A DNA stretch of 34,525 nt from Elusimicrobiota bacterium. Lineage in GTDB: Bacteria; Elusimicrobiota; UBA8919. The stretch's first letter is position 1; each line of letters begins with the position of its first letter. Below, piece by piece: positions 1 through 33,134 of the stretch. The position numbers and the translations under genes are program-made. The DNA is taken from contig DMMW01000010.1 in assembly GCA_003452965.1 (NCBI GenBank), forward strand, positions 1 to 34,525, read 5' to 3'. Below the pieces are notes generated by a model. That model searched no databases and was not told the DNA's origin. It was given only the letters and a program-made list of their open reading frames with translations.

Positions 1-85
1 ACACAACACAACATACATATATTAACTAATTAAAAATAAATAATAATAATGGAAAAACGAAAAAAAAGGGTCTCTGTCCCCTTTT

Positions 86-207
86 TCTTGGTGTTGCATC
101 CGGCCCGCCACAGAACCGATGGCGAGGCCTATTATAATGCGAAAGTTAATATAGCAAACTATAATCTCTAAAATTCGGATTATTTTTATCTTGGTGTTGC
201 ATCCGGC
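86..207. repeat. 19-nt exact direct repeat (tcttggtgttgcatccggc) at 86-104 and 189-207; the second copy is the 3' end of the SDR gene
   Basis: Identical 19-mers read directly from the sequence. Copy 189-207 encodes the last codons (PDATPR) next to the stop at 186-188. Copy 86-104 lies 103 nt further downstream of the gene. Confidence 0.85.
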
Positions 208-2287: not shown

Positions 2288-3175
2288 CTACCTCTTTACC
2301 TTTGTCGCTAATGTTTTATATAATTCTAACGCTTCTTGTGGTTTCATGTTTTTATGCACAACATTATTTACTGCTTTTATCATTGCAATAGGATTTTCGC
2401 TTTGGAATATGTTTCTGCCCATATCCACACCCGACGCACCCTGCTGTACGGCACTATATGCCATTGTAAGTGCATCCAACACTGGCAGTTTTTTACCGCC
2501 TGCCATAACAATGGGAACAGGACATGATGCCGTTATAGTTTCAAAATCTTCTGGAACATAATATGTTTTTACTACATGTGCACCCAATTCTGCACATATA
2601 CGGCATGCAAGCCGAAAATATTTAGCATCCCTTACCATATCCTTGCCTACTGCGGTTACTGCTAAAACAGGTATTCCATAACGCATTCCCATATCAACCA
2701 ACTTGGTCATATTATGTATTGACCGTGTCTCAAATTCACCTCCGATAAATACCTGTATTGCCATAGCTGATACATTCATTCTGATAGCATCTTCAATATC
2801 AACAGCTATTTCTTCATTTGAAAGTTCTTTTAAGATGCTTGGTCCACCGCTTGTTCTCATAACTATAGGTGTTGTAAACGACGGAGGTATAGTAGTTCTC
2901 AAGATTCCGCGGGTCAACATAATTGCATCTGCATATTTTACAAGCGGAACAATATTTAAATCAATCCGTTCCAATCCGGTTGTAGGTCCCTGAAAATAGC
3001 CATGATCTATTGCCAGCATGACCGTGCGTCCAGTATCGCTGTTGAATATTCTTGACAGGCGGTTTTTCATACCCCAATCTAAAGAATTAGACCCTTTAAG
3101 AAAAAAACATTCCGATTTCATTGGAATATCTTCATAATATTTTTTTTCTTCTTTATTTGCGTCTGTTTCCGGCAT
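2288..3175 (-). CDS. DhnA/FbaB/LsrF-family class I aldolase (TIM barrel)
   Basis: [12 protein letters not shown] and a GAHVVKTYY-type Schiff-base lysine region. The track ORF is trimmed to ATG at 3175 (MPETDANK...), which is preceded by GGAGG on the minus strand. Confidence 0.75.
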
Positions 3176-3259
3176 AACTCCTCCCTGGAAATTTATTAAT
3201 TTTAATAACCTCATTATATATAAAAAATATTTTATTTTCAATAAAAATTTAAAAACCTC

Positions 3260-3287
3260 TTGCAAATTATCAATGTTTAGATACAAT
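3260..3287 (+). promoter_or_regulatory. Putative sigma70-type promoter for the cupin/esterase genes (TTGCAA-16-TACAAT)
   Basis: TTGCAA at 3260-3265 and TACAAT at 3282-3287, about 27 nt upstream of the cupin ATG, within an AT-rich divergent intergenic region. Confidence 0.4.
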
Positions 3288-3313
3288 AATAGAAAATAAT
3301 ATTGGGAGATTTT

Positions 3314-3628
3314 ATGCCTATAATCTCGGGAAAGAATGCTGTGCAAAATACCGGTGAGTTCCCGGCATGGGGATTGGTTCACTTCAAAGCAGGACAGAAA
3401 AACATAACAGAATTACATTATCACGATAGTGACGAATTTTTCTTTATGATTGAAGGAAGATGTGTGATGAAATCGGAAGGGAAAATATATACTCTTGAAA
3501 AAGGCGATGTTTTTGTTACTCGCATGGGTGACGAACACGAACTTTTTGAGATATTGGAAGATACGACACTTTTTTGGCTATGCACAGAACTTCGCGGTCA
3601 AAAAAGGCAAGGACACCAGCACAGGTAA
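3314..3628 (+). CDS. Cupin-domain protein
   Basis: Cupin motif 1 is [14 protein letters not shown] and motif 2 region is [15 protein letters not shown]. The ATG at 3314 is preceded by GGGAG. Confidence 0.7.
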
Positions 3629-3654
3629 AAATGGATAAAGATTGGAGGAATGAT

Positions 3655-4617
3655 ATGTCATTAATATTTGGGATGTCTTTGAGAAAACTAAAAGAATATA
3701 AGGGCAGAAATCCGCGTCCTAAAGATTTCGATAAGTTTTGGGAAAGAGGTCTTTCTGAAATGAATTCAATAGCTCCAAAAATAAAAATAGTTCCTGCAAA
3801 GTTTCAGGTACCTTTTTGCAAGTGTTTGCATCTGTACTTTACTGGTGTAGGCGGAGCGCGTGTTCACGCAAAAGTTTTGCGTCCCAAAAAACCGGCTAAA
3901 AAACATCCTGCAATATTGATGTTTCACGGATATTCCTGCAGCAGCGGAGATTGGTACAACAAGCTTGCCTACGCAGCTTTGGGCTATACCGTTGCTTATT
4001 TAGATTGCCGCGGACAGGGTGGTTTATCCGAAGATAAAGGTGGGGTTACCGGCTGGACACTACACGGGCATATTGTTCGCGGATTAAGCGATTCGCCGGA
4101 AAAACTGTTATTCAGGAATATATTTCTTGATGTGGCCCAGATTGCCAAAATAGTAATGGAAATGTCCGACGTGGATGAAAACCGCGTTGGCGCCATAGGC
4201 GGCAGCATGGGCGGGGCACTTTCGTTAGTTTGCGCCGCATTGGAGCCGAGAATCAGAAGAGTTGCGCCTAATTATCCGTTTCTTTGCGATTATAAAGGTG
4301 TATGTGAAATGGATGTGACTAAAACAGCTTATGCGGAATTTCACGATTATTTCAGGAAATTTGATCCGTTACATGAAAGGGAAGAAGAGTTTTTTAACAA
4401 ACTTGGCTATATAGATGTTCAGCATTTTTGCAGCAGGATAAAAGCGGAGGTATTGATGGGTACCGGCTTGATGGATACCGATTGTCCGCCGTTCAGTCAG
4501 TTTGCCGCATACAATAAAATTAAGTCAAAAAAAACATTAGAAATATATCCGGATTTTGCGCATGAGGATTTTCCATATCATAACGATAAAATCTTCCAGT
4601 TTATGAGCAATCTATGA
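3655..4617 (+). CDS. Acetyl-xylan esterase / cephalosporin-C deacetylase family (CE7) serine hydrolase
   Basis: All three CE7 signatures are present: RGQ (CRGQGG), a GxSxG nucleophile elbow (GGSMGG) and HE (FAHEDF). The N-terminus LKEYKGRNPRPKDFDKFW is typical. The ATG at 3655 follows GGAGG at 3644-3648. An alternative ATG lies at 3631. Confidence 0.8.
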   Translation: MSLIFGMSLRKLKEYKGRNPRPKDFDKFWERGLSEMNSIAPKIKIVPAKFQVPFCKCLHLYFTGVGGARVHAKVLRPKKPAKKHPAILMFHGYSCSSGDWYNKLAYAALGYTVAYLDCRGQGGLSEDKGGVTGWTLHGHIVRGLSDSPEKLLFRNIFLDVAQIAKIVMEMSDVDENRVGAIGGSMGGALSLVCAALEPRIRRVAPNYPFLCDYKGVCEMDVTKTAYAEFHDYFRKFDPLHEREEEFFNKLGYIDVQHFCSRIKAEVLMGTGLMDTDCPPFSQFAAYNKIKSKKTLEIYPDFAHEDFPYHNDKIFQFMSNL

Positions 4618-4639
4618 TTAGGACAATGTAAAGGAAGTT

Positions 4640-4738
4640 ATGAAAATAGGCTTCATTGGATTAGATAAAATATATAGATGAAAAAATGGTTGCATTGGAA
4701 AATAAATGCAATCCCAAAAAGGTTACTCCATATTTTGT
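4640..4738 (+). pseudogene. Degenerate copy of the first ~100 nt of the ychF-like gene (5614)
   Basis: MKIGFIGLDKIYR* followed by frame-shifted DEKMVALENKCNPKKVTPYFV, compared with MKIGFIGIEIPEGKIKYKDEKFVALENKCEPKKITPYFV at 5614. It has its own AAGGAAG RBS. Confidence 0.75.
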
Positions 4739-4765
4739 TTAATAAAATCTCTTTAAAAAAATTAG

Positions 4766-4843
4766 TGTTTAGATACAATATTTATGAGGATTCTTGTAAT
4801 AAAAACTTTGTATGCTTGAAAAGGTGATATTTTTGTTGCCCGT
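4766..4843 (+). pseudogene. Remnant of a second promoter + cupin gene copy with a large internal deletion
   Basis: The 15-mer tgtttagatacaata is shared with 3274-3288. MRILVIK compares with MPIISGK. KGDIFVARLED compares with [11 protein letters not shown] after a 1-nt deletion that creates TGA at 4817. The remnant runs in frame into the UDG-like ORF. Confidence 0.55.
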
Positions 4844-5617
4844 TTGGAGGATAACATAAATAAATATGAATTTGGGTTTTTAGGTGCAAAATTCCGGGTT
4901 CACAAAGACTGGAAACATTTTTTTGAAAATATATGCCTGGAATGTATAGAGAAGAATATTAGAAGAGATAAAATTACACCTTCTAAAGAAAATATTTTCA
5001 AAGTTTTTGAGAAACTCGGTCCTAAAGATATTAAAGTAGTAATAATCGGGCAGGACCCATATCCGCAACCAAATATTGCAACAGGCCGCGCATTTGAAGT
5101 TAAAGAATTGAATTCATGGCTTATTCCATTCAGGCAAGCAACATTAAGAAACATTTTGAAAATGTTGTATAACTGGCATGACAGTAAGAAGAATAAAAAA
5201 GCTTCAAGATTAGAAAAAATTGAAATTATAAAAAACGCAATAGAAAAGAAAGATTATAATATATTGCCGCCGGATAAGGTATTTGATTATTGGGAAAAAC
5301 AAAAAATATTTTTATTGAATTTTGCATTGACATACAGGATGGGTAATTGTGATAGTGGGGATTCTCATTTAATGTATTGGAAAGATTTTAATTATAAATT
5401 GGTAAGATGTTTATCAAAAATAAATAAAAATATAGTATGGTTGTTATTCGGAAAAGTTAACGAAGAAAATAACTGGATTATTAAACAAAATGCTTTTTAT
5501 ATTGCCCATCCGTCTGACAGGAGGGGAATAAACCCTAAGGATTTAGAAAAAATACGTCAATTTTTCGATATTTCGGTTAAGAAACATAAAATAGATTGGC
5601 TCGGAGGAAATTTATGA
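4844..5617 (+). CDS. Divergent uracil-DNA glycosylase superfamily protein (family-1-like scaffold with altered motifs)
   Basis: VVIIGQDPYPQPNIATGRAFEV compares with the UNG motif GQDPYHGPGQAHGL. FLLNFALT, VWLLFGK and AHPSDRRG compare with HPSPLS. The start is uncertain: TTG at 4844 with no in-frame ATG near the 5' end. The stop overlaps the next start (ATGA). Confidence 0.65.
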   Translation: MEDNINKYEFGFLGAKFRVHKDWKHFFENICLECIEKNIRRDKITPSKENIFKVFEKLGPKDIKVVIIGQDPYPQPNIATGRAFEVKELNSWLIPFRQATLRNILKMLYNWHDSKKNKKASRLEKIEIIKNAIEKKDYNILPPDKVFDYWEKQKIFLLNFALTYRMGNCDSGDSHLMYWKDFNYKLVRCLSKINKNIVWLLFGKVNEENNWIIKQNAFYIAHPSDRRGINPKDLEKIRQFFDISVKKHKIDWLGGNL

Positions 5618-6303
5618 AGATAGGTTTTATCGGGATAGAAATACCTGAGGGTAAGATAAAATACAAAGATGAAAAATTTGTCGCATTGGAAAATAAATGC
5701 GAACCTAAAAAAATAACTCCATATTTTGTAGAATTCATTATTAATGAATTCGTTCAGGTAAACGCTATTGTTATTTCAAAAGATAAAATACTTGATTTGC
5801 TTATTCCCGATATTGAAAAACTTGAAGCACGTGTGCAGAATACAAATGATAATTTTGAAAAAGAATTAATAAAAAAATGTATATCTTGTCTTGAAAATGA
5901 AATGCCTTTATGTGACATCGTTTTTAACGAACAGGAACAGAAACTTCTTCAGATGCTGTCACCGAATAGCATGAAACCGATTGTAATTATTGATGACAAA
6001 GTTGAAACAAACGAAATAATTGAAAAAGTATTAAAAAAATCACAAACTATATTTTTTTATACAGCGGGAAAAGATGAGGTTCATGCCTGGCCTGTAAAAG
6101 CAGGTTCCGATATTGTGACCTGTGCGGGCAGGATACATTCCGATTTAGCACGCGGATTTATAAAAGCGGATATTGTAAGTTTTGACAATTTTATGAAATG
6201 CCATAATTTTAATGATGCCAAGACAAAAGGATTGGTAAAGCTAGTAGATAGGGAATATATTATCCAAGAATCAGATATTATAGAGATACGCTTCAATGTA
6301 TAA
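5614..6303 (+). CDS. YchF-like protein retaining the C-terminal TGS/DUF933 domain but with a degenerate P-loop
   Basis: The C-terminus AWPVKAGSDIVTCAGRIHSDLARGFIKADIVSF...EYIIQESDIIEIRFNV matches the YchF C-terminal domain. The N-terminus MKIGFIGIEIPEGK replaces G(L/I)VGLPNVGKST. GGAGG RBS, and the ATG overlaps the upstream stop. Confidence 0.7.
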   Translation: MKIGFIGIEIPEGKIKYKDEKFVALENKCEPKKITPYFVEFIINEFVQVNAIVISKDKILDLLIPDIEKLEARVQNTNDNFEKELIKKCISCLENEMPLCDIVFNEQEQKLLQMLSPNSMKPIVIIDDKVETNEIIEKVLKKSQTIFFYTAGKDEVHAWPVKAGSDIVTCAGRIHSDLARGFIKADIVSFDNFMKCHNFNDAKTKGLVKLVDREYIIQESDIIEIRFNV

Positions 6304-6390
6304 ACAAAAAGCATAGAATTGAGAGATATTAAAATAAGAATCTTGGAATAGATTATTTCATCAAAATAAATAAAATGGTGTAATTTAAAA

Positions 6391-6630
6391 ATGAAGATTT
6401 TGTATCGTGATGTTAAAAAATATTGTGTGTTGACGAATAGAGAAGTGGAAGTCTTGCAGAAACTTATTCATAATACATTACCCAACGGGAATGAAGAAAT
6501 AATTCCTGTTCAGAAAATAAAATGTCCATATGCTATCAAGTGTTTCTATGAAGCGAGAGATTGCATTTACACTGAAAGCAATATCAATTCTAAAAATGAT
6601 CCCTTAATATTCAAAAATGAAGAGAAGTAA
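6391..6630 (+). CDS. Small hypothetical protein (79 aa, 4 Cys)
   Basis: Only ORF-level evidence. It overlaps the next gene by 14 nt. The short LTNREVEVLQKL stretch is reminiscent of LuxR-type HTH but too short to call. Confidence 0.3.
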   Translation: MKILYRDVKKYCVLTNREVEVLQKLIHNTLPNGNEEIIPVQKIKCPYAIKCFYEARDCIYTESNINSKNDPLIFKNEEK

Positions 6631-7714
6631 ATTGGAACTTAAATATAAACCGGATTTTGATTATGCAAAAGAAATGTGGAATCATTATTGGGCAAAAGAA
6701 GTATTGAAACGTCCGCTTGTGGTTGCCAATGTAGTTAAACAAGAAGGAAAAACTGTTGATAAAGATAAGTATAAGTATTATAATGCATGTACGAAGAATT
6801 ATAGAGAACAACTGACGATAATTGATGAATGGTTGGATAATACGTTATTTCTTGCTGAATCAATTCCGTGTTTTTCTCCAAGTCACGGTCCTGACCAGTT
6901 TGCTGCAATGCTCGGTGCTGATTTAAAATTTTCAGAAAGTAGCAAAACTACGAATTGGGTAGAACCTATAGTAGAAAATTGGGAAGAATTTATCCCGAAG
7001 ATTAAATTAAATGAAAATAATTCCGTCTGGCAAAGTCTTCTGGAATATTCAAAGATTCTTAAAGAACATTCAAAGGGGAAATATCTCGTTGGGATTTGCG
7101 ATTTTTATTCAAATGCCGATATGTTAAGTGCGATTCGGTCTCCGGCTAAATTGTGTATGGATTTTTATGATTATCCCGAATCAATAGCAAAGGCAATGTT
7201 ATCAGTCAGAAAATTATATAAAACGGTATATAATTCTTTATATGAAGCAGGCGGAATGAACAACGAAACCGGTACTATAGGGTGGATTCCTTTTTGGTGT
7301 AAAGATAAATATGCAACGATTCAATGTGATTTTATATGTATGGTATCACCGAAAATTGCAAATGAATATATAATTCCGGCATTAGAGGAAGAGGCGAATT
7401 TTCTTGACCATTGCATCTATCATCTTGACGGTCCCGGAGCATTACCACATCTTGATAATATTCTTGCAATAAAAAAAATTGATGCAATTCAGTGGATACC
7501 CGGTGATGGGCAGCCGCCGCAGTATGAATGGATTGATGTTCTGAAAAAATGCCAGAAAGCTGGTAAGGGACTTCAGATTTTGGATGTCACAAGCATAGAT
7601 ATTATAAAAAAATTCAGCAAAGAACTCAGTCCGGAAGGACTGGTATACTGCATAGACGTAAAGACTGAAAGAGAAGTTGATGAAATAACGACATGGCTTG
7701 AAAAAAACACTTGA
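6617..7714 (+). CDS. Hypothetical protein, possibly a uroporphyrinogen-decarboxylase (URO-D)-like TIM-barrel family member
   Basis: 365-aa ORF. The overall pattern (SHGPDQFAAMLGA..., CIYHLDGPGALPHLDNILAIKKIDAIQWIPG) recalls URO-D/MtaA-like proteins. The family call is from memory only. Confidence 0.4.
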   Translation: MKRSKLELKYKPDFDYAKEMWNHYWAKEVLKRPLVVANVVKQEGKTVDKDKYKYYNACTKNYREQLTIIDEWLDNTLFLAESIPCFSPSHGPDQFAAMLGADLKFSESSKTTNWVEPIVENWEEFIPKIKLNENNSVWQSLLEYSKILKEHSKGKYLVGICDFYSNADMLSAIRSPAKLCMDFYDYPESIAKAMLSVRKLYKTVYNSLYEAGGMNNETGTIGWIPFWCKDKYATIQCDFICMVSPKIANEYIIPALEEEANFLDHCIYHLDGPGALPHLDNILAIKKIDAIQWIPGDGQPPQYEWIDVLKKCQKAGKGLQILDVTSIDIIKKFSKELSPEGLVYCIDVKTEREVDEITTWLEKNT

Positions 7715-7926
7715 AGCTCCATCCCGATAACAATCGGGATTATAACATTTACCATAAGATTTTAAGGAGCGGAATCCGGCCCGTCAAGGCTTCGGCCTTG
7801 GCTGGCTGCAGGATGAAGCTCCATCCCGATAACAATCGGGATTATAACATTTACCATAAGATTTTAAGGAGCGGAATCCGGCCCGTCAAGGCTTCGGCCT
7901 TGGCTGGCTGCAGGATGAAGCTCCAT
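7712..7926 (+). repeat. Perfect 102-bp tandem duplication (7712-7813, 7814-7915) plus an 11-nt third start; each unit carries two hairpins
   Basis: The two units are identical by direct reading. Hairpin A is atcccgat-aaca-atcgggat (7721-7740 and 7823-7842). Hairpin B is caaggc-ttcg-gccttg (7785-7800 and 7887-7902), a C(UUCG)G tetraloop on the + strand. The array begins at the stop codon of the upstream gene. Confidence 0.95.
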
Positions 7927-8000
7927 TCTGTGTGGCGAGACAAGTTGCATTGGGAATGGGTAAGATGAAGTTTTACAATCATAAAAAAGGAATGAAAATT

Positions 8001-8954
8001 ATGGATTTTCAAAAACCAAAGGTTGCAATAATCGGTGCAGGAAGTGTCGGTAGTACATTTGCTTTCAGTTTGATGAATAGCGGCCTGTCAAGAGAAATTG
8101 TTCTAATTGATAGGAATGCATTACGTGCAAAAGGTGAATGCATGGATTTGAATCATGGGATAAGTTTCACTCAACCTGCAAAAATTTATTCAGCGGGATA
8201 TGAAGGTTGTGAAAATGCAGATGTTATAGTTATAACGGCAGGAGCTAAACAAATTCCGGGTCAGTCAAGAATAGATTTGGTGCAACAAAATACCGAAATA
8301 TTCAAGGATATAATTCCTAAAATAATAAAATATGCCAAAGATGCGGTAATTTTAGTTGTTTCAAATCCGGTAGATATATTAACATATGTAACTTTGAAAA
8401 TTTCCGGATTTCCTTCAAATAGAGTAATAGGCTCCGGGACTGTCTTGGATACAGCAAGATTCAAATATTTAATTAGTGAACATTGCGGGATAGATTCAAG
8501 AAATATTCATGCTTATGTTATTGGTGAACATGGAGACACAGAACTTCCCGTGTTAAGCAATGCAAACATTGGCGGAATGGTATTGTCAAAATATTGTGCA
8601 ATATGTTCCAGACATTGCGACAATAGTAGGAGCGAATTGGAAAAGATATTCAGTGAGGTTAAAAATGCTGCTTACAAAATAATTGAAGCAAAAGGTGCGA
8701 CCTATTACGCTGTTGCCTTGGCATTAGTCAAGATAACGGGCTCAATATTAAGAAATGAGAATTCTATTTTACCGGTTTCAACTCTAATTAATGATTATTA
8801 CAACATCTCTAATATATGTCTCAGTATTCCGGCTATAGTTAATAAAAACGGTGTTGAAAAATTTTTAAGAATAGAATTATCAGAACAGGAACAAACACAG
8901 CTTAAAAGTTCTGCAGATTCATTAAAAGAAATATTAGAAAAAATTAAGTTCTAA
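8001..8954 (+). CDS. ldh: L-lactate dehydrogenase
   Basis: KVAIIGAGSVGS NAD-binding fold, VITAGAKQ..GQSRIDL, SNPVDIL and the IGEHGD catalytic His region. The start is chosen at 8001 (AGGA 9 nt upstream). An alternative ATG lies at 7992. Confidence 0.9.
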   Translation: MDFQKPKVAIIGAGSVGSTFAFSLMNSGLSREIVLIDRNALRAKGECMDLNHGISFTQPAKIYSAGYEGCENADVIVITAGAKQIPGQSRIDLVQQNTEIFKDIIPKIIKYAKDAVILVVSNPVDILTYVTLKISGFPSNRVIGSGTVLDTARFKYLISEHCGIDSRNIHAYVIGEHGDTELPVLSNANIGGMVLSKYCAICSRHCDNSRSELEKIFSEVKNAAYKIIEAKGATYYAVALALVKITGSILRNENSILPVSTLINDYYNISNICLSIPAIVNKNGVEKFLRIELSEQEQTQLKSSADSLKEILEKIKF

Positions 8955-8964
8955 TTTGTTGTTC

Positions 8965-8993
8965 TTGACATACTTTACGAGACGGTATATAAT
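8965..8993 (+). promoter_or_regulatory. Consensus sigma70-type promoter TTGACA-17-TATAAT upstream of otsA
   Basis: TTGACA at 8965-8970 and TATAAT at 8988-8993 with exact 17-nt spacing, about 60 nt upstream of the otsA ATG. Confidence 0.55.
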
Positions 8994-9052
8994 TAAAGGT
9001 GTTCCAACCTCTATACTCTATATGCTAATCTCTGTTGTTATTAGGAGGCAAA

Positions 9053-10516
9053 ATGTGGGATAAGAATGTTCTGCAAGATTTAATGAAGGAAAAATTGGCA
9101 AAATATAAATTTATTATAGTTTCCAATAGACAGCCTTATGTTTTTGATTATGTTGGAAGAAAAGTTAAATGTACAAAAACTATAGGTGGTTTGGTAACAG
9201 CAATGGATCCCGTAATGCAGGCCTCAGAAGGTGTATGGGTAGCTGCTTCTTCAGGTGATGCCGATAACAGTGTTATTGACAAAAATAATATTGTAAAAGT
9301 TCCTCCTGAAAAATCTGCATATTCAATGAAATTGATAAATCTAACAAAAAATGAAGAACAAGGTTATTATTACGGTTATTCAAATCAGGCATTATGGCCG
9401 TTAAGTCATATTGCGTATCGTCAGCCCAATTTTATGCATTCCGATTGGGAGACTTATAAAAATGTAAATAAAAGATTTGCAGAAAGTGTTCTGGAATTGT
9501 TTGATGATAAGCAGCCTTTTATTTGGTTACAGGATTATCATTTAACTCTTTGTGCAAAATACATAAAAGAAAAAAAACCGGAAGCGGTGAGTTCCCTTTT
9601 TTGGCATATACCATGGCCAAATCCGGAAGTTTTCAGAGTATGTCCTCAGAAAACTGAAATTTTAGAGGGATTGTTAGCGAATGATTTATTGGGTTTTCAT
9701 ATCAAATATCATTGTCATAATTTTCTTGAAACATGTGAAATTGAATTAGAATCAAAAGTTGACTGGGAAGAATCAGCAGTAACGTATAAGGGACATAAGA
9801 CTTTAATTAAAGATTTTCCTATAAGTGTGGATTTTGAATCATTGTCTGAAATGGCTGGTAGTGCAGATGTTACTAAAAAGGTCGAGGATTTGTCTTTTGA
9901 AATAGACCCTCCGTATGAAATTCTTGCACTGAGTATTGACAGAGTTGATTATACAAAAGGTATAATTGAAAAAATTCGGGCTGTAGATAAATTTTTAGAA
10001 AAATATCCTGAATACCATAAAAAATTCGTTTTTTTTCAAAAGGGTGCGCTTAGCAGATTACATATTAAGGCATATAAGGAATTAATAGATGAAATTCAAG
10101 CGTTGACTGAGGAAATAAACTGGAAATATCGTTCCGGCAATTGGTATCCGATTGTGCTTTTAAACAAGAAAATTGATTATACAACGCATATCGCTTTATA
10201 TCGGGCATGCGATTTGTGTTTGGTAGGTTCTCTTCATGATGGAATGAATTTGGTTGCAAAAGAATTTATCTCTGCTAATGTTGATATAAAAGGCATTCTA
10301 ATGTTATCAAAATTCACAGGTGCCGCTAGGGAACTGAAAGATGCTGTTCTGGTAAATCCGTACGATACCGAAGGTTTTGCTGATGCTATAAAAATGGCGA
10401 TTGAAATTCCGCCCAATGAAAAAAAGGAACAGATAAAAAGGATGCGCGAACATATTCAAGAAAACAATATTTATAAGTGGGCTGGCAAGTTTATAAGCAC
10501 ATTAATAAAAATATAA
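9053..10516 (+). CDS. otsA: Trehalose-6-phosphate synthase (GT20)
   Basis: IVSNRQPY, NQALWPLSH, WLQDYHL, FWHIPWP, DRVDYTKGI and HDGMNLVAKEF. GGAGG lies before the ATG at 9053. Confidence 0.9.
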   Translation: MWDKNVLQDLMKEKLAKYKFIIVSNRQPYVFDYVGRKVKCTKTIGGLVTAMDPVMQASEGVWVAASSGDADNSVIDKNNIVKVPPEKSAYSMKLINLTKNEEQGYYYGYSNQALWPLSHIAYRQPNFMHSDWETYKNVNKRFAESVLELFDDKQPFIWLQDYHLTLCAKYIKEKKPEAVSSLFWHIPWPNPEVFRVCPQKTEILEGLLANDLLGFHIKYHCHNFLETCEIELESKVDWEESAVTYKGHKTLIKDFPISVDFESLSEMAGSADVTKKVEDLSFEIDPPYEILALSIDRVDYTKGIIEKIRAVDKFLEKYPEYHKKFVFFQKGALSRLHIKAYKELIDEIQALTEEINWKYRSGNWYPIVLLNKKIDYTTHIALYRACDLCLVGSLHDGMNLVAKEFISANVDIKGILMLSKFTGAARELKDAVLVNPYDTEGFADAIKMAIEIPPNEKKEQIKRMREHIQENNIYKWAGKFISTLIKI

Positions 10517-10536
10517 AAGCGGGCTATAGCACATAT

Positions 10537-12009
10537 ATGATTAAATTAATAAAAAAAATGTCTTTTAAATTAAAATTGATTATAATTATTTCTTTTATAA
10601 ATATTTTGGTTATATCTATTATTTCATATATAAGCATGCTCCACATGGAAAGAAGTTTAAAAGAGAGAATGGAATTAAGAACCAAGGTGATTGTTGATGT
10701 AATAGTACATAGCATTGATGACGAGACAAAATTAAAACGAGAGGTAATAGAAGAATATTCTAACTTTATTATCAATGAACGGGAGATACAATATATAGCA
10801 TTTTTTGATAAAAGAAATAATTTAATAAGTATAGCCGGTGAACGTGGAAAAACTGAAATTAAATTTGTTACAGAAAATATATTTGATATGCAAGATAATA
10901 TATACGATGTTTACGGGGAGATAATAGGAAAAAATAAAATAAAAATAGGTTCTATAATAGTAGGATTCCCGATTACAAAGCTGAAGCAGGCAATTAATAA
11001 AGGAGTAGTAACAAGTATAATATTATGGTTAATAGCTATCGTCGTGATAATGATTTTTAATTATTCAAGTTTAACATATTTTTTACGACCTATCAGAGAT
11101 TTATTTCGTGCAGCTGAATGTGTTTCCAAAAGGGACTTTAATTGCAAGATACCTGTTTATAATGCTGATGAAATCGGAAAAATATCAGAACAATTTAATC
11201 TTATGATAGTTGAATTAGAATCTTTTTATAATTCACTTGAGGAAAAAGTTAAAATAGCAACTAATGGATTAGAAGCATCAAATGAAAAATTAAAAGAGAA
11301 AACAAAAGAGTTGGAAGAAATGGATAAAAGGAAAACAGAGTTTGTTTCCATTGTCGCCCATGATTTAAGGTCGCCTCTTACTTCAATGATGGGTTTTGCG
11401 GATACATTAAACAATGAAAATTTAAATTTAAGCGAACAAGACAAAAAAAGATATATAAATATAATACGCACTGAAACGCGGCGACTATCAAAGCTAATTT
11501 CAAATTTCCTTGATATATCTTTAATTGAAGAAAACAAAATTGTTATGGATGCTGAAAAAACAGATTTAGAAGAATTAATTAATGATGTGCTTAATTCTAT
11601 GAGCGAAAACATAATAAAAGGGATAAGAATATCGCTTGAAGTTGGAGAAGATATTCCTCAAATTTATATGGACAGAGATAGAATAATTCAAGTTTTACAG
11701 AATCTCATTATCAATGCATTAAAATATTCACCTGAGATGTCTGAGATTAAAATTATAGCCAAAAGGTTTCCCGATGAAGTAAGGATAAGTGTAATAGACC
11801 AAGGTCCTGGAATACCGGACAGGCAAAAAGAAAAAATATTTAATAAATTTAGCAAATTGAGTGAACAAAAAGCAAAAAAGGAGTCTGGAATAGGTTTAGG
11901 ATTGTTCATAGCAAAATCTATTGTTAATCTGCATGGTGGCAAAATATGGGTTGAAGATGCTGAAAATAAAGGCAGTAATTTTTCATTTACATTGCCAATA
12001 AAGGAATAA
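10537..12009 (+). CDS. Membrane sensor histidine kinase (2 TM, extracytoplasmic domain, HAMP, HisKA, HATPase_c); no cognate response regulator in the window
   Basis: H-box FVSIVAHDLRSPL, N-box NLIINALKYS, G1 DQGPGIP and G2 GIGLGLFIAKS. HAMP-like ADEIGKISEQFNLM follows the second TM. Confidence 0.85.
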   Translation: MIKLIKKMSFKLKLIIIISFINILVISIISYISMLHMERSLKERMELRTKVIVDVIVHSIDDETKLKREVIEEYSNFIINEREIQYIAFFDKRNNLISIAGERGKTEIKFVTENIFDMQDNIYDVYGEIIGKNKIKIGSIIVGFPITKLKQAINKGVVTSIILWLIAIVVIMIFNYSSLTYFLRPIRDLFRAAECVSKRDFNCKIPVYNADEIGKISEQFNLMIVELESFYNSLEEKVKIATNGLEASNEKLKEKTKELEEMDKRKTEFVSIVAHDLRSPLTSMMGFADTLNNENLNLSEQDKKRYINIIRTETRRLSKLISNFLDISLIEENKIVMDAEKTDLEELINDVLNSMSENIIKGIRISLEVGEDIPQIYMDRDRIIQVLQNLIINALKYSPEMSEIKIIAKRFPDEVRISVIDQGPGIPDRQKEKIFNKFSKLSEQKAKKESGIGLGLFIAKSIVNLHGGKIWVEDAENKGSNFSFTLPIKE

Positions 12010-12013
12010 AGTA

Positions 12014-13417
12014 GTGTTTAGAAAATATTTTCCGAAAGAAATAAAAATAAAACAAAGAGTTTTTGAACAGAGTATTCTAATAGCAAGTATCGTAAAATGG
12101 ACTTTATTGGCGATAATAATAGGAACTGTTGTAGGATTTTCTACCGGACTATTTTTATTTTCTTTGGATATTACAATTAGTTTTTTTAATAGATTTAATT
12201 ATTATTTTTTTATTTTACCAATAATTATTTTACTTATTGCCATAACAATAAGGAATATTTCTCCTGAATCGGAGGGACATGGCACAGAAAAAGTTATAGA
12301 ATCTATTCATAAAACACACGGACAAATTTCTTGGAAGGTTATACCCATCAAAGCCATAACTTCGATTCTTACTATTACTTTCGGAGGTTCGGTAGGTAAG
12401 GAAGGCCCTTGCGCACAGATAGGGGGTGGAATAGCTTCTTTATTCTCAAACATTTTAAAATTTCATCCAATTGACCGTAAAAAACTTGTAATTTGTGGAA
12501 TAAGTGCCGGTTTTGCTGCCGTTTTTGGAACTCCTATTGCTGGTGCGCTTTTCGGTGTTGAGGTTTTGTTCATAGGACAGATTTTTTATGAAGTATTATA
12601 TCCGTCTTTCATTGCTGGAATTGTGGGTTTTCAAACCTGCAGATTATTCGGTATAACATATTTCACACATCCGATAAATCTTGTCCCTAAATTTACTGAT
12701 TTATTTTTATTAAAAGTAGTTGCTTTTTCAATTCTTATTGGTTTGGTTGCATATTTATTCATTGAGACATTAAATTTCACCCATAAAAAGTTCAAAAAGA
12801 TTCCTTATAAAAAGAGAGCTATATTAGGTGGTTTATTAGTTGTATTTATTGTACAGGTTACTTCTCGGAGATATCTTGGACTTGGATTGGATACTATAGC
12901 GCAAGCTATCAATGGTGAACATATACCTAAACTTGCTTTTTTGTGGAAGACAATAGTAACATCTATTACATTGTCATGTGGCGGTAGTGGTGGGATTGTG
13001 ACTCCTATTTTTTACGTAGGTGCTGCAAGCGGGAACTTGTTTGCAAGGATATTTAATTTTGATTTAGGTACATTTTCAGCAATTGGTATGACATCTCTTC
13101 TTGCTGCCTGCACAAATACACCAATTGCCTCATCAGTTATGGCGATAGAGTTATTTGGACCCAAAGTGGGTATTTATTCTGCGATTTGTTCAATTATTAG
13201 TTTTACTATAGTTGGCTACAGGTCTGTATATCCAAGCCAAATATTAGGTGTTCTAAAAAGCCAGAGTTTCAAGGTGGAATTAAATAAAGAAATTAAGGAT
13301 GTAGAAAGCACGGAACAATTCAAGATGTTTTCACAACGAAATACATTAACACATATTATAATATCAATATATTTAAAGATAAAAAAATGTAGATTATTCA
13401 TGAAAAAAAAGAAATGA
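12014..13417 (+). CDS. ClC-family voltage-gated chloride channel / H+-Cl- antiporter
   Basis: GGSVGKEGP, FGTPIAGALFGVE and GGSGGIVTPIFYVGA, with multiple TM helices. GTG start with AAGGA 8 nt upstream, and no internal Met for over 100 aa. Confidence 0.85.
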   Translation: MFRKYFPKEIKIKQRVFEQSILIASIVKWTLLAIIIGTVVGFSTGLFLFSLDITISFFNRFNYYFFILPIIILLIAITIRNISPESEGHGTEKVIESIHKTHGQISWKVIPIKAITSILTITFGGSVGKEGPCAQIGGGIASLFSNILKFHPIDRKKLVICGISAGFAAVFGTPIAGALFGVEVLFIGQIFYEVLYPSFIAGIVGFQTCRLFGITYFTHPINLVPKFTDLFLLKVVAFSILIGLVAYLFIETLNFTHKKFKKIPYKKRAILGGLLVVFIVQVTSRRYLGLGLDTIAQAINGEHIPKLAFLWKTIVTSITLSCGGSGGIVTPIFYVGAASGNLFARIFNFDLGTFSAIGMTSLLAACTNTPIASSVMAIELFGPKVGIYSAICSIISFTIVGYRSVYPSQILGVLKSQSFKVELNKEIKDVESTEQFKMFSQRNTLTHIIISIYLKIKKCRLFMKKKK

Positions 13418-13476
13418 AATATTTTTTTAAAGAATTAGGAAAAATAAAAGGGTACAAAATATTAAGAAAATTATGA
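13414..13476 (+). pseudogene. Duplicated, truncated 5' end of otsB (MKYFFKELGKIKGYKILRKL*)
   Basis: A 37-nt exact match, 13412-13448 = 13701-13737. Its ATG overlaps the ClC stop (ATGA), as expected for the ancestral ClC/otsB junction. Confidence 0.8.
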
Positions 13477-13649
13477 AAAATCATGGTTTTTCACTAGACG
13501 CGATATTTTCATCAAGGCATGCCTTGATGAACGGCTCAAAAAACACTAAAATTTCAAAACTCACTTGCTATGCTCGTTCAGACAGTTGAAATTTTTTAAC
13601 GGTTTTTTATCGCCTAAATATCGCTATATCGTTCAAAACCAGATTTTTC
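13475..13649. mobile_element. 175-bp non-coding element with imperfect ~35-nt terminal inverted repeats and two internal hairpins (MITE-like or structured RNA)
   Basis: The left end gaaaaatcatggtttt...gcgatattt matches the reverse complement of the right end, gaaaaatctggtttt...gcgatattt. Internal features are the 22-bp perfect palindrome tcatcaaggcatgccttgatga (13509-13530) and the pair aaaatttcaa/ttgaaatttt (13548-13605). Confidence 0.5.
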
Positions 13650-13702
13650 GATAATGTAATTATTCTTGAAAGATGTGAATTATTTTTTAAAAAAAATAAA
13701 AA

Positions 13703-14473
13703 ATGAAATATTTTTTTAAAGAATTAGGAAAAATAAAGAAAAAAATAAAAGGATATAAAATATTACTCTGCCTGGATTATGATGGTACTCTAACCCCCAT
13801 AGTTAAAAAGCCAGAATATGCCAAACTCGGGCAAAACATTAAGCATGCTTTAGAAAACATTAAAAGTAATAAAAATATTATATTGGCTATAATATCAGGC
13901 AGGACTTTATCAGGAATAAAAAAATTAGTCAATCTTAGAAATGTTATTTATGCAGGCAATCACGGTTTTGAAATAGAGATAGGCAGGGATGTTTTTATCC
14001 ATCGGGGACTCAAGGAAGCTATTCCGATAATCAGCAAAATAAAAAAAGCGATAAGTAAAAAAATAAAAGGAATACGGGGTGCATTTATTGAGGATAAAGA
14101 ATTTACATTAAGCATTCATTGGCGGTTGGTCAAAAAAAAATATTTAAATAAGTTGTTTCTAATAATTAAAAATATTATACATAATAATAGTAAAATAAGA
14201 TTAACCATAGGTAAAAAGGTATGGGAAATCAGGCCTAATATTGCTTGGGATAAGGGTAAAGCCGTTGAATTAATATATTCAAAAGTAAATAAAAATAATA
14301 ATTTAAAAATCATATATATAGGTGATGATACAACTGATGAAGATGCTTTCTCGGTATTGAAAAAAGAAATAACAATAAAAATCGGTAAATCAAATAAGTC
14401 AAAAGCAAAATATTATTTAAAAAAACAATCAGAAATAAAAAATATTCTCAATTTATTGAGTAATATAGGCTGA
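13703..14473 (+). CDS. otsB: Trehalose-6-phosphate phosphatase (HAD-IIB)
   Basis: LCLDYDGTLTP (DxDGT), ISGR, and the WDKG...YIGDDTTDEDAF motif. Confidence 0.85.
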   Translation: MKYFFKELGKIKKKIKGYKILLCLDYDGTLTPIVKKPEYAKLGQNIKHALENIKSNKNIILAIISGRTLSGIKKLVNLRNVIYAGNHGFEIEIGRDVFIHRGLKEAIPIISKIKKAISKKIKGIRGAFIEDKEFTLSIHWRLVKKKYLNKLFLIIKNIIHNNSKIRLTIGKKVWEIRPNIAWDKGKAVELIYSKVNKNNNLKIIYIGDDTTDEDAFSVLKKEITIKIGKSNKSKAKYYLKKQSEIKNILNLLSNIG

Positions 14474-14484
14474 TAATATATTTT

Positions 14485-15132
14485 ATGAATAATCCGTTTA
14501 TTTTCTTTACACGTTTCAATCTCACCGAGCTTTTAGGGATAAAGGCAAAGAACATAATAGAACTTCTTGAAGGCATTAAATCTGTTCCGGGTTCATCCAT
14601 TTATTTTCATACGCACAGATATATTCAGCAGCACCATTTTTTATCTCCCGAGCCACCGAATGATTTTGCCTATTGGGTTACAAATATTTTACAGGAAGAT
14701 AAACTTGGCGAGCGGTTGGCATCAATTGATATAATACAATTCAAAAAAATTTCAGATATTAGAGAAATATTTATTACAATAATAGAACAATACATAAACA
14801 GAAATCCGTCAAGCAGACAAGCATATGAAGGGGAACAGTTCCACTTTATGAAATCAATCTCATTTATAATGAAAACCCAATATTCTGCAAAGGATTTGAA
14901 GGAATTTCTCGAAATTGTAAAAAAAGTATCTATACACTCCATATATTTCCATATGTTTGAAGCGCGGCTTCGTCTTGAAAAAGTGGAAAATGATTTTTCG
15001 TACTGGATGACAACTGAGTTAAGAGAGGGGGATTTAGCGGATAAGATATCAAAACTGGACCCATATACTCAAACATTGGAATCATTAAGAAATGAAATAA
15101 TATTTTTGATTGAAAAGAGAATAAATGGCTAA
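14485..15132 (+). CDS. Conserved-looking hypothetical protein built from two homologous half-repeats
   Basis: SIYFHTHRY...PNDFAYWVTNILQEDKLGERLASID compares with SIYFHMFEA...ENDFSYWMTTELREGDLADKISKLD. The gene overlaps the treT-like start by 8 nt. Confidence 0.6.
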   Translation: MNNPFIFFTRFNLTELLGIKAKNIIELLEGIKSVPGSSIYFHTHRYIQQHHFLSPEPPNDFAYWVTNILQEDKLGERLASIDIIQFKKISDIREIFITIIEQYINRNPSSRQAYEGEQFHFMKSISFIMKTQYSAKDLKEFLEIVKKVSIHSIYFHMFEARLRLEKVENDFSYWMTTELREGDLADKISKLDPYTQTLESLRNEIIFLIEKRING

Positions 15133-16357
15133 AATAAATGATTATATTAAAATAGTAGGTGAGGATATAATAGAAGAGTTAAAAATCCTTAGTGAAAGAT
15201 TAAAAGGTAAAGTTATCCAAAATATCAATTCTACCTCTGTAGGTGGAGGTGTTGCAGAGATATTGAACAGAATAGTTCCGCTAATGAATGAACTTGGAGT
15301 GGATACCCGTTGGGATTTGATAAAAGGCGGCGAAAGATTTTTCAATATAACAAAGAGATTTCACAATACGCTGCATGGCATACCAGCCGAAATAAGCGAC
15401 GAAGAATTTGATTATTTTTTACAAGTGGAAAACGAGAACGCACAAGCGATAAATTTTTATGGCGATGTGATATTGATTCATGACCCGCAACCAATCGGGC
15501 TTATCAACAGAAAAAAAGATTTCGGTAATAATAAGAAGTGGATATGGAGATGCCATATTGACATTTCCCATCCCGAAATTAAGGTATGGGATTTTTTAAA
15601 GCAGTTTATTAATTCATACGATGCATCAATATTTTCTGCTCCGGTGTTTTCAAAGGAACTTCCCATAAAACAATTCTTAATCTCACCATCTATAGATCCG
15701 CTTTCCGATAAAAACAAAGAACTTGATGCATCTACTATTGATTCTGTTTTATATAAATATAAAATTACCAAAGATAAACCGATTATAACACAGATTTCAC
15801 GCTATGATATATTGAAAGACCCGCTTGGAGTAATAGATGCGTTCAAATTAGTACGGAAACATATTGATTGTCAATTAATACTTGCTGGAAATACAGCTAC
15901 TGATGATCCGGAACATGACAAGGTTTTAAATATGGTAAAAGAGAAAGCTGGAAATGATTCGGATATTCATATACTTGTAATAGAACCTGCAAATAATGAT
16001 ATTGAAATAAACGCTTTACAGCGTGCATCGGATATAGTTTTACAAAAATCACTTAAGGAAGGCTTCGGACTTACAGTTTCTGAAGCACTTTGGAAGAAAA
16101 AACCTGTAATTGCAGGGGCTGTTGGTGGAATTCCGCTACAAATTACGCATAAACATTCTGGAATTCTTACCCATACTGTGGAAGGAACGGCTTATTGGAT
16201 AAAACAACTCATTAATTCGCCTGAATATGCCAAAAAACTCGGTCTAAACGGGCATGAACACATAAAGAACAATTTTCTTCTAACTCGCCATATTCTCGAA
16301 TACTTTCTTTTATTCACTTCACTTTATCACAGCGGTGACATCATCCACCTTAATTAG
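15125..16357 (+). CDS. GT4 glycosyltransferase of the TreT (trehalose glycosyltransferring synthase) type
   Basis: N-terminal NSTSVGGGVAEILNRIVPLMNELGVDTRWDLIKG..FFNITKRFHNTLHG is typical of TreT-like enzymes. The C-terminal E(x7)E region is EGFGLTVSEALWKKKPVIAG. Confidence 0.75.
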   Translation: MAKINDYIKIVGEDIIEELKILSERLKGKVIQNINSTSVGGGVAEILNRIVPLMNELGVDTRWDLIKGGERFFNITKRFHNTLHGIPAEISDEEFDYFLQVENENAQAINFYGDVILIHDPQPIGLINRKKDFGNNKKWIWRCHIDISHPEIKVWDFLKQFINSYDASIFSAPVFSKELPIKQFLISPSIDPLSDKNKELDASTIDSVLYKYKITKDKPIITQISRYDILKDPLGVIDAFKLVRKHIDCQLILAGNTATDDPEHDKVLNMVKEKAGNDSDIHILVIEPANNDIEINALQRASDIVLQKSLKEGFGLTVSEALWKKKPVIAGAVGGIPLQITHKHSGILTHTVEGTAYWIKQLINSPEYAKKLGLNGHEHIKNNFLLTRHILEYFLLFTSLYHSGDIIHLN

Positions 16358-22477: not shown

Positions 22478-23338
22478 ATGATAGACGAAAAAGATGTTTA
22501 TGAGGCTAAGAAGAAAGTGCAGTCTGCAATGAAGGATGCGACTGTAAGGATGGCGGTGATTGTTGGGGCGATTCTGTTGGGCATTCTGTTCTTTAGACCA
22601 TGGATCCAGATTGGTCCTGGCGAAAGAGGTGTTGTCTTAAATTTTGGTGCTGTTCAGAAAAACGTGCTTGGAGAAGGATTGCATTTTAGGATACCTATAG
22701 TGCAGACGATTGCCATAATGGATGTAAAGGTGCAGAAGGCAGAGACAGGTGCTGCATCCGCCTCGTCCGATCTTCAGGATGTGACATCATCGGTTGCGCT
22801 TAACTATCATATAGTCCCGGATAAGGCAAATGTTGTCTATCAAACCATCGGGGTATACTTTAAGGAGCGTATTATAGACCCTGCAATACAAGAGGTAATG
22901 AAAGCTGTGTCAGCCAAGTATACAGCAGAAGAACTTATAACAAAGAGGGCAGCAGTAAGCGAGGCTATAAGAGAAACACTTGCTGAAAGACTTTTAGCAT
23001 ATAATATAGCAGTTGATGCATTTTCCATTATCTCATTCAGTTTCTCTAAGGTATTTACAGAAGCCATTGAGTCAAAACAGACAGCAGAACAGCTTGCACT
23101 AAAAGCAAAGAGAGACCTGGATAGGATAAAGATAGAGGCGGAGCAGACAATTACGGCAGCAAAAGCAGAGGCGGAGTCCCTGAGGCTGCAAAGAGCGAAT
23201 ATTTCTACGGACCTTATAGAATTGAGAAAAATAGAGGCAAACCTTAAGGCAATAGATAAGTGGAATGGAATCCTTCCGCAGGTTACAGGTAGCGGAGCAA
23301 TACCATTTATTGGAGTAGGGGATATACAGAAAAAATAA
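22478..23338 (+). CDS. SPFH/Band-7 (prohibitin-like) membrane protein
   Basis: An N-terminal TM followed by IGPGERGVVLNFG, a PHB core and a C-terminal coiled coil (AEQLALKAKRDL...). GGAGG lies before the ATG at 22478. Confidence 0.85.
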   Translation: MIDEKDVYEAKKKVQSAMKDATVRMAVIVGAILLGILFFRPWIQIGPGERGVVLNFGAVQKNVLGEGLHFRIPIVQTIAIMDVKVQKAETGAASASSDLQDVTSSVALNYHIVPDKANVVYQTIGVYFKERIIDPAIQEVMKAVSAKYTAEELITKRAAVSEAIRETLAERLLAYNIAVDAFSIISFSFSKVFTEAIESKQTAEQLALKAKRDLDRIKIEAEQTITAAKAEAESLRLQRANISTDLIELRKIEANLKAIDKWNGILPQVTGSGAIPFIGVGDIQKK

Positions 23339-26847: not shown

Positions 26848-27238
26848 GGGGGCTGGGACTATGCTCTTGACTTTTTATTGTAGTATGTCCCCCAAGGTCC
26901 ATAGTAAACAACGAATGGTATTTTGGGGAATACAATACCTAAATAACGTCAAAAAAAATGAAAAATCAATGAAAACACAACTAATTGCTGAAGCAAACGT
27001 ATGGTGGAAATTTGGTAAAAACTTTTCTTACATATCAAAAGAATTACAAAGGAATTGACCCTACCCCATTAAATTTTACTAATACTAAATCCTATCTAAA
27101 AATTACTTGACAATTTATGAATATTATTATAAGACATATATGTAATATAAATGATAGTATACACGGTAAATGCGAGCAAATAATAGCATACTCATAAGTA
27201 TCCTACTCGTGAGTATTCTAACTAAAAGGGTGCGGTTT

Positions 27239-27574
27239 ATGGAGCATAAATTCATAAATAGAAAATCTGAAATTGATTCATTAGAAAAAAAGTGGGAAGA
27301 GAAAAAAAGCCACTTGATTATTGTTTACGGCAAAAGGCGTGTAGGTAAAACGGAAATCATAAAACAGTTTATTAAAAATAAACCCTCTGTATATTTCTTG
27401 GCTGACAAACGGACTATAAACGAACAACTCAAAGAATTAGGCAGGTTATTCGGCGCTCATTTCAAAGATGCCCTACTTGAAAAGAACGGATTTACCGACG
27501 ATATGCTGAAACTGGCGAAACAAGAACGTGTTTACTTAGTCAACAAGAACGAATTGATTGAGATGCAAGAGTAA
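27239..27574 (+). pseudogene. Internally deleted ATPase of the Arch_ATPase + DUF234 type (N-terminal ~95 aa joined to the last ~30 aa)
   Basis: FINRKSEIDSLEKKW..HLIIVYGKRRVGKTEIIKQFIKNKPSVYFLA (Walker A) runs directly into GFTDDMLKLAKQERVYLVNKNEL, the typical extreme C-terminus of such ~450-aa proteins. Confidence 0.6.
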
Positions 27575-27624
27575 TAAGACAGTATAGGTCGCGACAGAGC
27601 AACAGTTTATAAGTTAAAGATTGA

Positions 27625-27891
27625 TTCGTTGCATTAGTATTTAAAGAAATTGGACGAGCTGACGAGATGGGGTCGGGTGTCAGGAAACTCTATAAATATT
27701 GTAAAATCAACTCGGGATTAAATCCCCAGTTGATAGAAGAGGATATATTTAAAATTATTATTCCATTAGATGAGCAAGTTGGTGAGCAAGTCCTAAAGAT
27801 ACTTAAATACTGTAAAATCTCAAGAAAGAAGCAAGAAATATCCGATATGTTATATCCCGACGAAGGAACGGAAATCTTTCACTTTATATGA
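27625..27891 (+). pseudogene. C-terminal fragment of a COG2865-type (HATPase_c_4 + wHTH) protein, paralogous to the 27961 gene
   Basis: FKEIGRADEMGSGVRKLYKYCKINSGLNPQLIEEDIFKIIIPL compares with QQAGSGTLEMLKQCKAKGLPEPDF in the intact neighbour. The open frame starts only at 27625, just after a stop. Confidence 0.5.
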
Positions 27892-27923
27892 TAAAAGATG
27901 AAAAACCAAAAAGACCCCGTTCC

Positions 27924-27951
27924 TTGATTTTTCACTGTAAAAGAGTATAAT
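27924..27951 (+). promoter_or_regulatory. Putative promoter TTGATT-16-TATAAT ending 9 nt before the ATG (near-leaderless transcript)
   Basis: TTGATT at 27924-27929 and TATAAT at 27946-27951, with the ATG at 27961 and no SD between them. Confidence 0.4.
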
Positions 27952-27960
27952 CAAATCATT

Positions 27961-29436: not shown

Positions 29437-29452
29437 AGGGGCGATAATGGGG
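29407..29452 (+). repeat. Five phased GGGG runs (~11-nt period; GGGGCGATAAT-type units) overlapping the gene's stop; canonical G-quadruplex motif
   Basis: GGGG at 29407, 29418, 29427, 29438 and 29449, with loops of 5-7 nt. The unit ggggcgataat occurs exactly twice. Confidence 0.9.
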
Positions 29453-29875: not shown

Positions 29876-29881
29876 GAGATT

Positions 29882-33121: not shown

Positions 33122-33134
33122 TGAAGTATAATTT

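Follow-up and report, generated by a model that had tools for sequence, protein, structure and literature searches.

A conserved GTAG motif located 5' of the hairpin foot is a hallmark of REP elements (PMC3479197). For tandem duplications, microhomologies of 4–15 bp at the duplication junctions and template switching over distances of hundreds of base pairs are established (PMC1428787). The window analyzed here, a 34.5 kb stretch of DNA (34 525 nucleotides) from an Elusimicrobiota bacterium, contains a perfect 102 bp tandem duplication of a hairpin-bearing spacer between a gene for a 365-residue protein and the gene for L-lactate dehydrogenase (ldh). We conclude that an event of a known kind has affected an orphan structured spacer and that the locus is an ordinary length variant. 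Our main reading, to which we assign a probability of about 0.6, is that the structured spacer was recently duplicated by slippage, that its stem-loop is likely to be functional and that carrying a second copy has little effect on fitness.

TRF reports positions 7712–7926 as a repeat of period 102 with 2.1 copies, 100% matches and a score of 430. Direct string comparison shows that unit 1 (residues 7712–7813, plus strand) and unit 2 (7814–7915, plus strand) are identical letter for letter and that they are followed by an 11 nt partial third unit (7916–7926, plus strand), TGAAGCTCCAT, which matches the first 11 nt of the unit. The two methods agree in supporting the perfect 102 bp duplication with 11 nt of a third unit that had been described from the sequence alone. 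A perfect repeat of 113 nt cannot be the product of chance. The left copy of the 11 nt direct repeat (hereafter R; 7712–7722, plus strand) is present in both the one-copy and the two-copy alleles described below, and the partial third unit is its right copy. The TGA at 7712–7714 is both the stop codon of the upstream open reading frame (6617–7714) and the first triplet of unit 1. Base 7711 is T and base 7813 is A, so that the repeat starts exactly at the T of this TGA, as the sequence-only reading had stated; this coincidence with the stop codon is most simply fortuitous and merely reflects the position of the left 11 nt microhomology. The GC content is 50% for the unit and 65% for the part that forms hairpin 2, compared with 34% for the window, and the description of the units as locally GC-rich in an AT-rich genome is borne out. 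The unit corresponds to 34 codons and is open in one frame (ORF 7711–7968, 85 residues). A coding unit was nevertheless rejected: it has no Pfam match, it was not called by any gene caller in any contig and its AAGGAG motif lacks a start codon 4–12 nt downstream.

Each unit contains two hairpins. Hairpin 1 (ATCCCGAT-AACA-ATCGGGAT; 7721–7740, plus strand, in unit 1 and 7823–7842, plus strand, in unit 2) is the perfect 8 bp hairpin with an AACA loop noted previously, and its predicted stability is equal on the two strands (−10.4 and −10.8 kcal/mol). An interpretation of ATCCCGAT-N4-ATCGGGAT as an operator palindrome was rejected, since no other site occurs in the window at ≤3 mismatches. Hairpin 2 has an 8 bp core, GTCAAGGC-UUCG-GCCUUGGC (7783–7802), with its UUCG tetraloop at 7791–7794 in unit 1. 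The extended hairpin 2 (7766–7822, plus strand, in unit 1 and 7868–7924, plus strand, in unit 2) spans 57 nt and comprises 21 bp arranged in four helices, including two G·U pairs. The C(UUCG)G hairpin previously reported for each unit is real, but the 6 bp attributed to it is too small for both the core and the extended stem. The base of hairpin 2 is formed by GGAGC (7766–7770, part of AAGGAGC), which pairs with GCUCC (7818–7822) of the next 11 nt repeat with a predicted probability of 0.99. Because GGAGC pairs with the GCUCC of the following R, the partial third copy completes the hairpin of unit 2 by supplying the GCUCC that closes it.

The predicted plus-strand RNA fold has an energy of −35.7 kcal/mol (z = −4.6) and accounts for 83% of the ensemble, compared with −24.4 kcal/mol (z = −2.0) for the minus strand. 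These values uphold the proposed preference for the plus strand, which is the direction of the flanking genes; the two G·U pairs are weak evidence for the choice of strand. The UUCG hairpin is the most stable 50 nt fold on either strand in the entire 34.5 kb window. Folded as single-stranded DNA, the 113 nt element has a predicted energy of −23.7 kcal/mol (z = −4.3).

Copy number varies among assemblies. The flanking proteins identify the organism as a groundwater Elusimicrobia bacterium of the RIFOXYC2_FULL_34_12 type. Exact-protein look-ups yielded, from ENA, JGI, NCBI and Logan assemblies, about 20 contigs that carry this locus and could be compared. One unit plus 11 nt is present in L001–L005, L007–L010, L232, L233 and L235, and two units plus 11 nt, with both flanks spanned, are present in L011 and L234 (a 36 kb JGI contig); in L006 and L012 the contig breaks off within unit 2. 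Copy number aside, the contigs match the window at 100% identity over 4–7 kb, with a handful of SNPs over 11 kb, and the other differences among the compared loci are almost exclusively a few SNPs and variation near the left end of the window. The population is near-clonal. Within PRJNA292723, a single pipeline at k127 yielded one copy for SRR2177953 and at least two copies for each of its sister runs SRR2177956, SRR2177986 and SRR2177362. Of the JGI samples, 3300025152 shows two copies and 3300009296 one.

A rival explanation is that the extra unit is an assembly artefact, or that the single-copy contigs are collapsed arrays, with no real polymorphism. In favor of such an explanation, three assemblies have contigs that terminate within the repeat, and at k ≤ 114 a one-copy contig can be spelled from reads with at least two copies and a two-copy contig from reads with at least three. 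Since all k-mers of the one-copy allele also occur in the two-copy allele at k ≤ 114, the one-copy contigs from small-k assemblies (SPAdes, older JGI or IDBA-type) could be collapsed arrays. However, the one-copy allele has private k-mers from k ≥ 115 onwards (13 at k = 127 and 27 at k = 141), and the one-copy contigs L007, L010 and L232 come from k127/k141 MEGAHIT assemblies. The one-copy allele must therefore exist in the reads, although this large-k argument is slightly weakened by the fact that MEGAHIT brings contigs forward from smaller k. Conversely, k-mers across the unit-to-unit junction are impossible to derive from the one-copy allele and require real reads; four independent assemblies, from different samples and pipelines, contain them in addition to the window, so that a multi-copy allele must also exist in the reads. 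Up to k = 216, every k-mer of the two-copy sequence also occurs in arrays of three or four copies, and ‘two’ is thus a lower bound. Judged from the assembled contigs and this k-mer logic, both alleles exist and the duplication did not originate in assembly; an artefact was the outcome that had been singled out as fatal to the sequence-only reading. The contrast between SRR2177953 and its sister runs under one pipeline points the same way, and we regard a purely artefactual origin as very unlikely.

The single-copy allele has the architecture R-X-R (TGAAGCTCCAT-91 nt-TGAAGCTCCAT) and the duplicated allele R-X-R-X-R. From the upstream stop codon to the ldh ATG, the gap measures 184 nt with one copy, 286 nt with two and, for three, 388 nt. 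The features of a tandem duplication are all observed: the units are identical and head-to-tail, the flanking repeat recurs at the new junction and length alleles are present in the population. By chance alone, a window of this kind should contain about three pairs of exact direct repeats of ≥11 nt lying no more than 150 nt apart, and therefore the 11 nt microhomology needs no special origin. A strong single-stranded fold between two repeats should favor slippage misalignment. The ancestral state would have been a single 113 nt structured spacer, R-X-R, in which X consists of 91 nt with two hairpins, situated between the stop codon of the 365-residue protein gene and ldh in this groundwater bacterium. 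R-X-R-X-R would then have arisen when replication slipped, or switched template, from one R copy to the other, a step probably aided by hairpins that form in single-stranded DNA and draw the two R copies close. We infer this mechanism from the step from R-X-R to R-X-R-X-R, an architecture that is a signature of microhomology-mediated slippage; the same architecture suggests that the change was from one copy to two rather than from two to one. The event appears to have been too recent for any substitution to have accumulated, and both length alleles still coexist. The second copy is probably near-neutral. The lack of divergence between units follows from this recency, since the population itself shows almost no substitutions. 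Of the two explanations previously offered for the identity of the units, a very recent duplication is favored by the coexistence of the single-copy allele in a near-clonal population, and ongoing homogenization becomes unnecessary, as recency accounts for the identity.

The upstream gene (6617–7714, plus strand; from the ORF list and an AlphaFold model) encodes a 365-residue protein of an uncharacterized family with a predicted URO-D/MtaA-type fold. The protein has no sequence match in Pfam, NCBIfam or the PDB. Its AF2 model has a pLDDT of 96.3, and Foldseek matches it to PDB entries 4ay7, 4wsh and 1r3y, which are MtaA-type methyltransferase and URO-D structures, with TM scores of about 0.6. 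The earlier label ‘URO-D-like’ consequently holds for the modeled fold but not at the level of sequence families. More than 500 homologues were found, the best with 68% identity, and none of them is syntenic. The downstream gene (8001–8954, plus strand) matches Pfam Ldh_1_N and Ldh_1_C and TIGR01771 (2.6e-119), in agreement with its earlier assignment as ldh. On the sense strand, the element precedes the ldh start codon by 75 nt, and every gene within 3574–16357 is on the plus strand. A weak candidate promoter-like site (TTGGGA-18-TACAAT; 7950–7979, plus strand; 9/12 matches) follows the repeat and precedes the ldh start codon. It is the only promoter-like site for ldh and is downstream of the element; the number of such sites in the window equals the shuffle expectation, i.e. 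chance frequency. A minus-strand promoter-like site present in each unit (TTGACG-17-TAAAAT) was discounted, since the window contains such sites about as often as chance predicts.

The closest available relative, locus L240, encodes an LDH with 79% identity. In L240 the homologue of a gene for a 79-residue protein is joined directly to ldh, without the 365-residue protein gene and without the spacer, which places the spacer in a lineage-specific segment. The LDH relatives show ≤79% identity and have different neighbors. The GC3 of the 365-residue protein gene is ordinary and the GC richness is confined to the stem. Recent horizontal transfer was therefore rejected as the origin of the GC-rich segment, and the ordinary GC3 argues that the segment as a whole is not a fresh transfer.

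Searches for relatives of the unit were negative. Rfam gave no match in the window at the gathering threshold; at E ≤ 10 in the region 7300–8300, the only match on the units was 5 nt of a chance miRNA match. The element accordingly could not be assigned to a known RNA family at either threshold. A search for tRNA and tmRNA found none. A covariance model of the 121 nt module (R1), run against the window with filters off, recovered the tandem copies only. The same model found no further copy in about 24 kb of additional flanking DNA of the same genome (contigs L232–L239), no copy in 82 loci (0.5 Mb) encoding relatives of the two flanking proteins, and no match and no such leader among the closest LDH relatives. 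A blastn-short search returned no second copy, only chance 10–13-mers. In all, about 58 kb of the genome was scanned for further copies, an extent at which low-copy dispersed families would escape. In the GTDB species genomes, where this species is apparently not represented, scanning for an exact 29-mer returned 0 matches. A 20-mer scan of the JGI metagenome collection, from which the element's own locus is absent, gave 13 matches, all attributable to chance and located in GC-rich coding DNA, with 37–43 of 102 positions identical in register. Scans of IMG/VR viral sequences with both hairpins returned generic UUCG hairpins only. The further copies of the unit envisaged in the sequence-only reading were thus found neither in the ∼58 kb of genome and the 0.5 Mb of related loci nor in the metagenome and viral scans.

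Our favored reading of the spacer concerns the RNA. In a plus-strand transcript, the very stable stem-loop would stand at the 3' end of the message of the upstream gene, ahead of ldh, where it would block 3'-to-5' exonucleases or mark a processing point between the two. A role at the RNA level is suggested by the co-directional genes, the plus-strand fold, the retention of the stem in an AT-rich genome and the position of the ldh promoter-like site downstream of the element; it is deduced from one sequence and a modeled fold. By analogy with intercistronic REP-type stem-loops, the element may serve as a 3'-end or intercistronic barrier, while being neither a REP element nor a canonical terminator. 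The earlier suggestion of a terminator does not hold in its canonical form. A GC-rich stem-loop is present, but no U tract follows the stem and the terminator scan is silent at this site, so that termination is not predicted; canonical terminators with T runs are present elsewhere in the window (for example at 60–89). An integron attC site was also rejected, by reading of the sequence, as the core-site consensus RYYYAAC/GTTRRRY is missing at the element ends. A small RNA gene is unlikely.

The chief rival to a functional stem-loop is that the spacer has no function, being a relic, for example of an old terminator or of DNA that arrived with the 365-residue protein gene, and that its duplication is neutral slippage. 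The hairpin could indeed be such a relic: the element is unique to its lineage, the closest relative lacks both gene and spacer, no search found a homologue, and neither a U tract nor an Rfam match is present. It is difficult, however, to reconcile decay with a 57 nt, 21 bp UUCG stem of 65% GC that folds more stably than anything else in the window, whose GC content is 34%, as AT-ward mutation pressure should erode a functionless stem, and the ordinary GC3 of the 365-residue protein gene indicates that its acquisition was not recent. We consider the relic a minor but appreciable possibility. A cis-regulatory leader of ldh, either riboswitch-like or protein-binding, with copy number tuning expression, would fit the location of the element on the sense strand, 75 nt before the start codon, its strong strand-specific structure and its SD-like AAGGAGC with two possible GCUCC partners. 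A switch between these partners is, however, thermodynamically disfavored and was rejected, as the alternative pairing is less favorable by 4.7 kcal/mol, with a predicted probability of 0.002. The ribosome-binding site of ldh lies outside the structure, the promoter-like site is downstream of the element, LDH relatives have no such leader and Rfam offers no match; we find a leader of this kind improbable. A broader version, in which the 113 nt module is a lineage-specific RNA (a protein- or metabolite-binding leader or an insulator) that regulates ldh or the upstream gene, and in which its proneness to slippage turns copy number into a heritable and reversible tuning knob, strikes us as highly improbable. 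If it were true, the expression of a fermentation gene would vary in a contingency-like manner within a natural groundwater population.

The REP/MITE-like element proposed in the sequence-only reading would make the unit a mobile or dispersed repeat, with the 11 nt repeat as its target-site duplication. The hairpin-rich 91 nt core is flanked by 11 nt direct repeats, as this would require, and a Y1_Tnp transposase gene is found near ldh in the closest relative (L240); in the 34.5 kb window, no RAYT (Y1) transposase is present. Against mobility, the unit has no second copy in the ∼58 kb of genome, the related loci or the collections, and its two hairpins are unrelated in sequence. Assignment to REP/BIME is not supported, because the unit contains neither GTAG, expected at the hairpin foot (PMC3479197), nor CTAC and has no dispersed copies in ∼58 kb. 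Assignment to MITE is likewise not supported, because there are no terminal inverted repeats, the ends of the 91 nt core (CCCGATAAC... and ...GCTGCAGGA) not being complementary, and because this is the sole locus found; the 11 nt repeat is formally a possible target-site duplication, yet it forms the base of hairpin 2. A mobile repeat is, on this evidence, distinctly improbable, and the REP/MITE label is not retained.

A recent slippage duplication of a structured spacer thus remains our preferred reading. It provides a clean natural case of microhomology slippage in an uncultivated phylum. The stem-loop, if functional, would be a small orphan RNA element in Elusimicrobia, although nothing requires it to be so. 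The main lesson is methodological: a metagenome-assembled genome can carry a short and perfect tandem duplication that is both real and polymorphic, and the assembled copy number depends on k, which calls for caution with short-read assemblies.

Among known systems, the locus most closely resembles microhomology-mediated tandem duplications (slipped-strand or template-switch), among them bacterial VNTR-type polymorphisms with short units, with which it shares identical head-to-tail units, a junction formed by the flanking direct repeat and copy-number variation within a population. Its 11 bp microhomology falls within the 4–15 bp range and the distance between the repeats is within the few hundred base pairs that are typical of template switching (PMC1428787). 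It differs in that the locus is known here as assembled metagenome alleles and that the copy number of two is a minimum. Like REP/BIME elements, it contains an extragenic, imperfect and very stable stem-loop after a stop codon among co-directional genes, with a plausible role as a barrier to 3'-to-5' exonucleases (PMC3479197, PMC2777011). Unlike them, it has no dispersed copies in the DNA searched, no GTAG, no inverted partner and no RAYT in the 34.5 kb window, and its stem is longer (57 nt). The element is similar to intrinsic terminators in that its GC-rich stem-loop, capped by a stable tetraloop, follows shortly after a stop codon, and is distinguished from them by what follows the stem, which is AUUCUGUGUGG, or the next unit in the case of unit 1, in place of a U tract.

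The gene immediately upstream of the 102-bp hairpin-bearing repeat (6617–7714) encodes a 365-residue protein with more than 500 homologues in Spirochaetota, Kiritimatiellia, Lentisphaerae and other groups. Sequence searches of Pfam, NCBIfam and the PDB with this family returned no match. The AlphaFold model of the protein (pLDDT of 96.3) displays a barrel of the URO-D/MtaA type, and its Foldseek matches have TM scores of ∼0.6 at 10–12% sequence identity. The protein appears to represent a family of enzymes that has not been characterised and is not covered by any profile.

The minus strand of each 102-bp unit contains a promoter-like sequence, TTGACG-17-TAAAAT (10/12 match; 7759–7787 and 7861–7889), which points into the gene for the 365-residue protein. 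Such promoter-like sites occur at the frequency found in shuffled sequence and the match is therefore probably a product of chance. A perfect σ70 consensus, TTGACA-17-TATAAT, is located at 8965–8993, within the 81 nt that separate ldh from the gene for trehalose-6-phosphate synthase (otsA), and suggests that otsA is served by a strong promoter of its own.

Other tandem arrays are present in the window. The heptanucleotide CAGGATA is repeated 21 times with 91% matches (2094–2243) in the gap between two minus-strand genes, one for a class II aldolase and the other of the DeoC type. This array is of equal length across the four contigs that carry the same locus in the near-clonal groundwater population (L232–L235), as their alignments are gap-free in this region. 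A GGGGCGA core underlies two short arrays: TAATGGGGCGA × 4.8 (29403–29453), which covers the end of the DUF4062 gene (27961–29436) and the sequence just downstream, and TGTTGGGGCGATTC × 2.3 (22561–22590).

At the left end of the window, a 19-nt direct repeat, TCTTGGTGTTGCATCCGGC, is found at positions 86 and 189, with the second copy forming the 3′ end of an SDR gene. No alignment with L232–L234 is obtained for the initial ∼81 nt of the window, and L235 differs from the window at positions 38–85 by several mismatches and indels. Beyond the SDR gene, L232–L234 are longer than L235 by ∼1 kb, which includes a 190-residue ORF. The population thus carries, besides the copy-number variation of the 102-bp unit, a second structural polymorphism at this left end (window positions 1–207; L232–L235).

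The right end of the window (27170–34169; also 11432–17037 of L236, a contig giving flanking sequence of the same genome) is a defence-like island with a truncated ATPase_2 gene and genes for a DUF4062 plus HATPase_c_4 protein, a 1079-residue PLD-helicase and a YhcG PDDEXK nuclease. An MmeI-type methyltransferase/endonuclease comes next in contigs that extend further.

The closest available relative (L240; ERZ4902888 NODE_879, positions 2978–4951) has an LDH that is 79% identical. Directly before ldh, it carries a homologue of the 79-residue gene of the window together with a 219-residue gene with a Y1 (IS200-like) transposase domain, and its acetyl-xylan-esterase homologue is located downstream of ldh rather than upstream as in the window. 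The neighbours of ldh therefore differ between the two lineages, and we conclude that the gene order has been rearranged between them.
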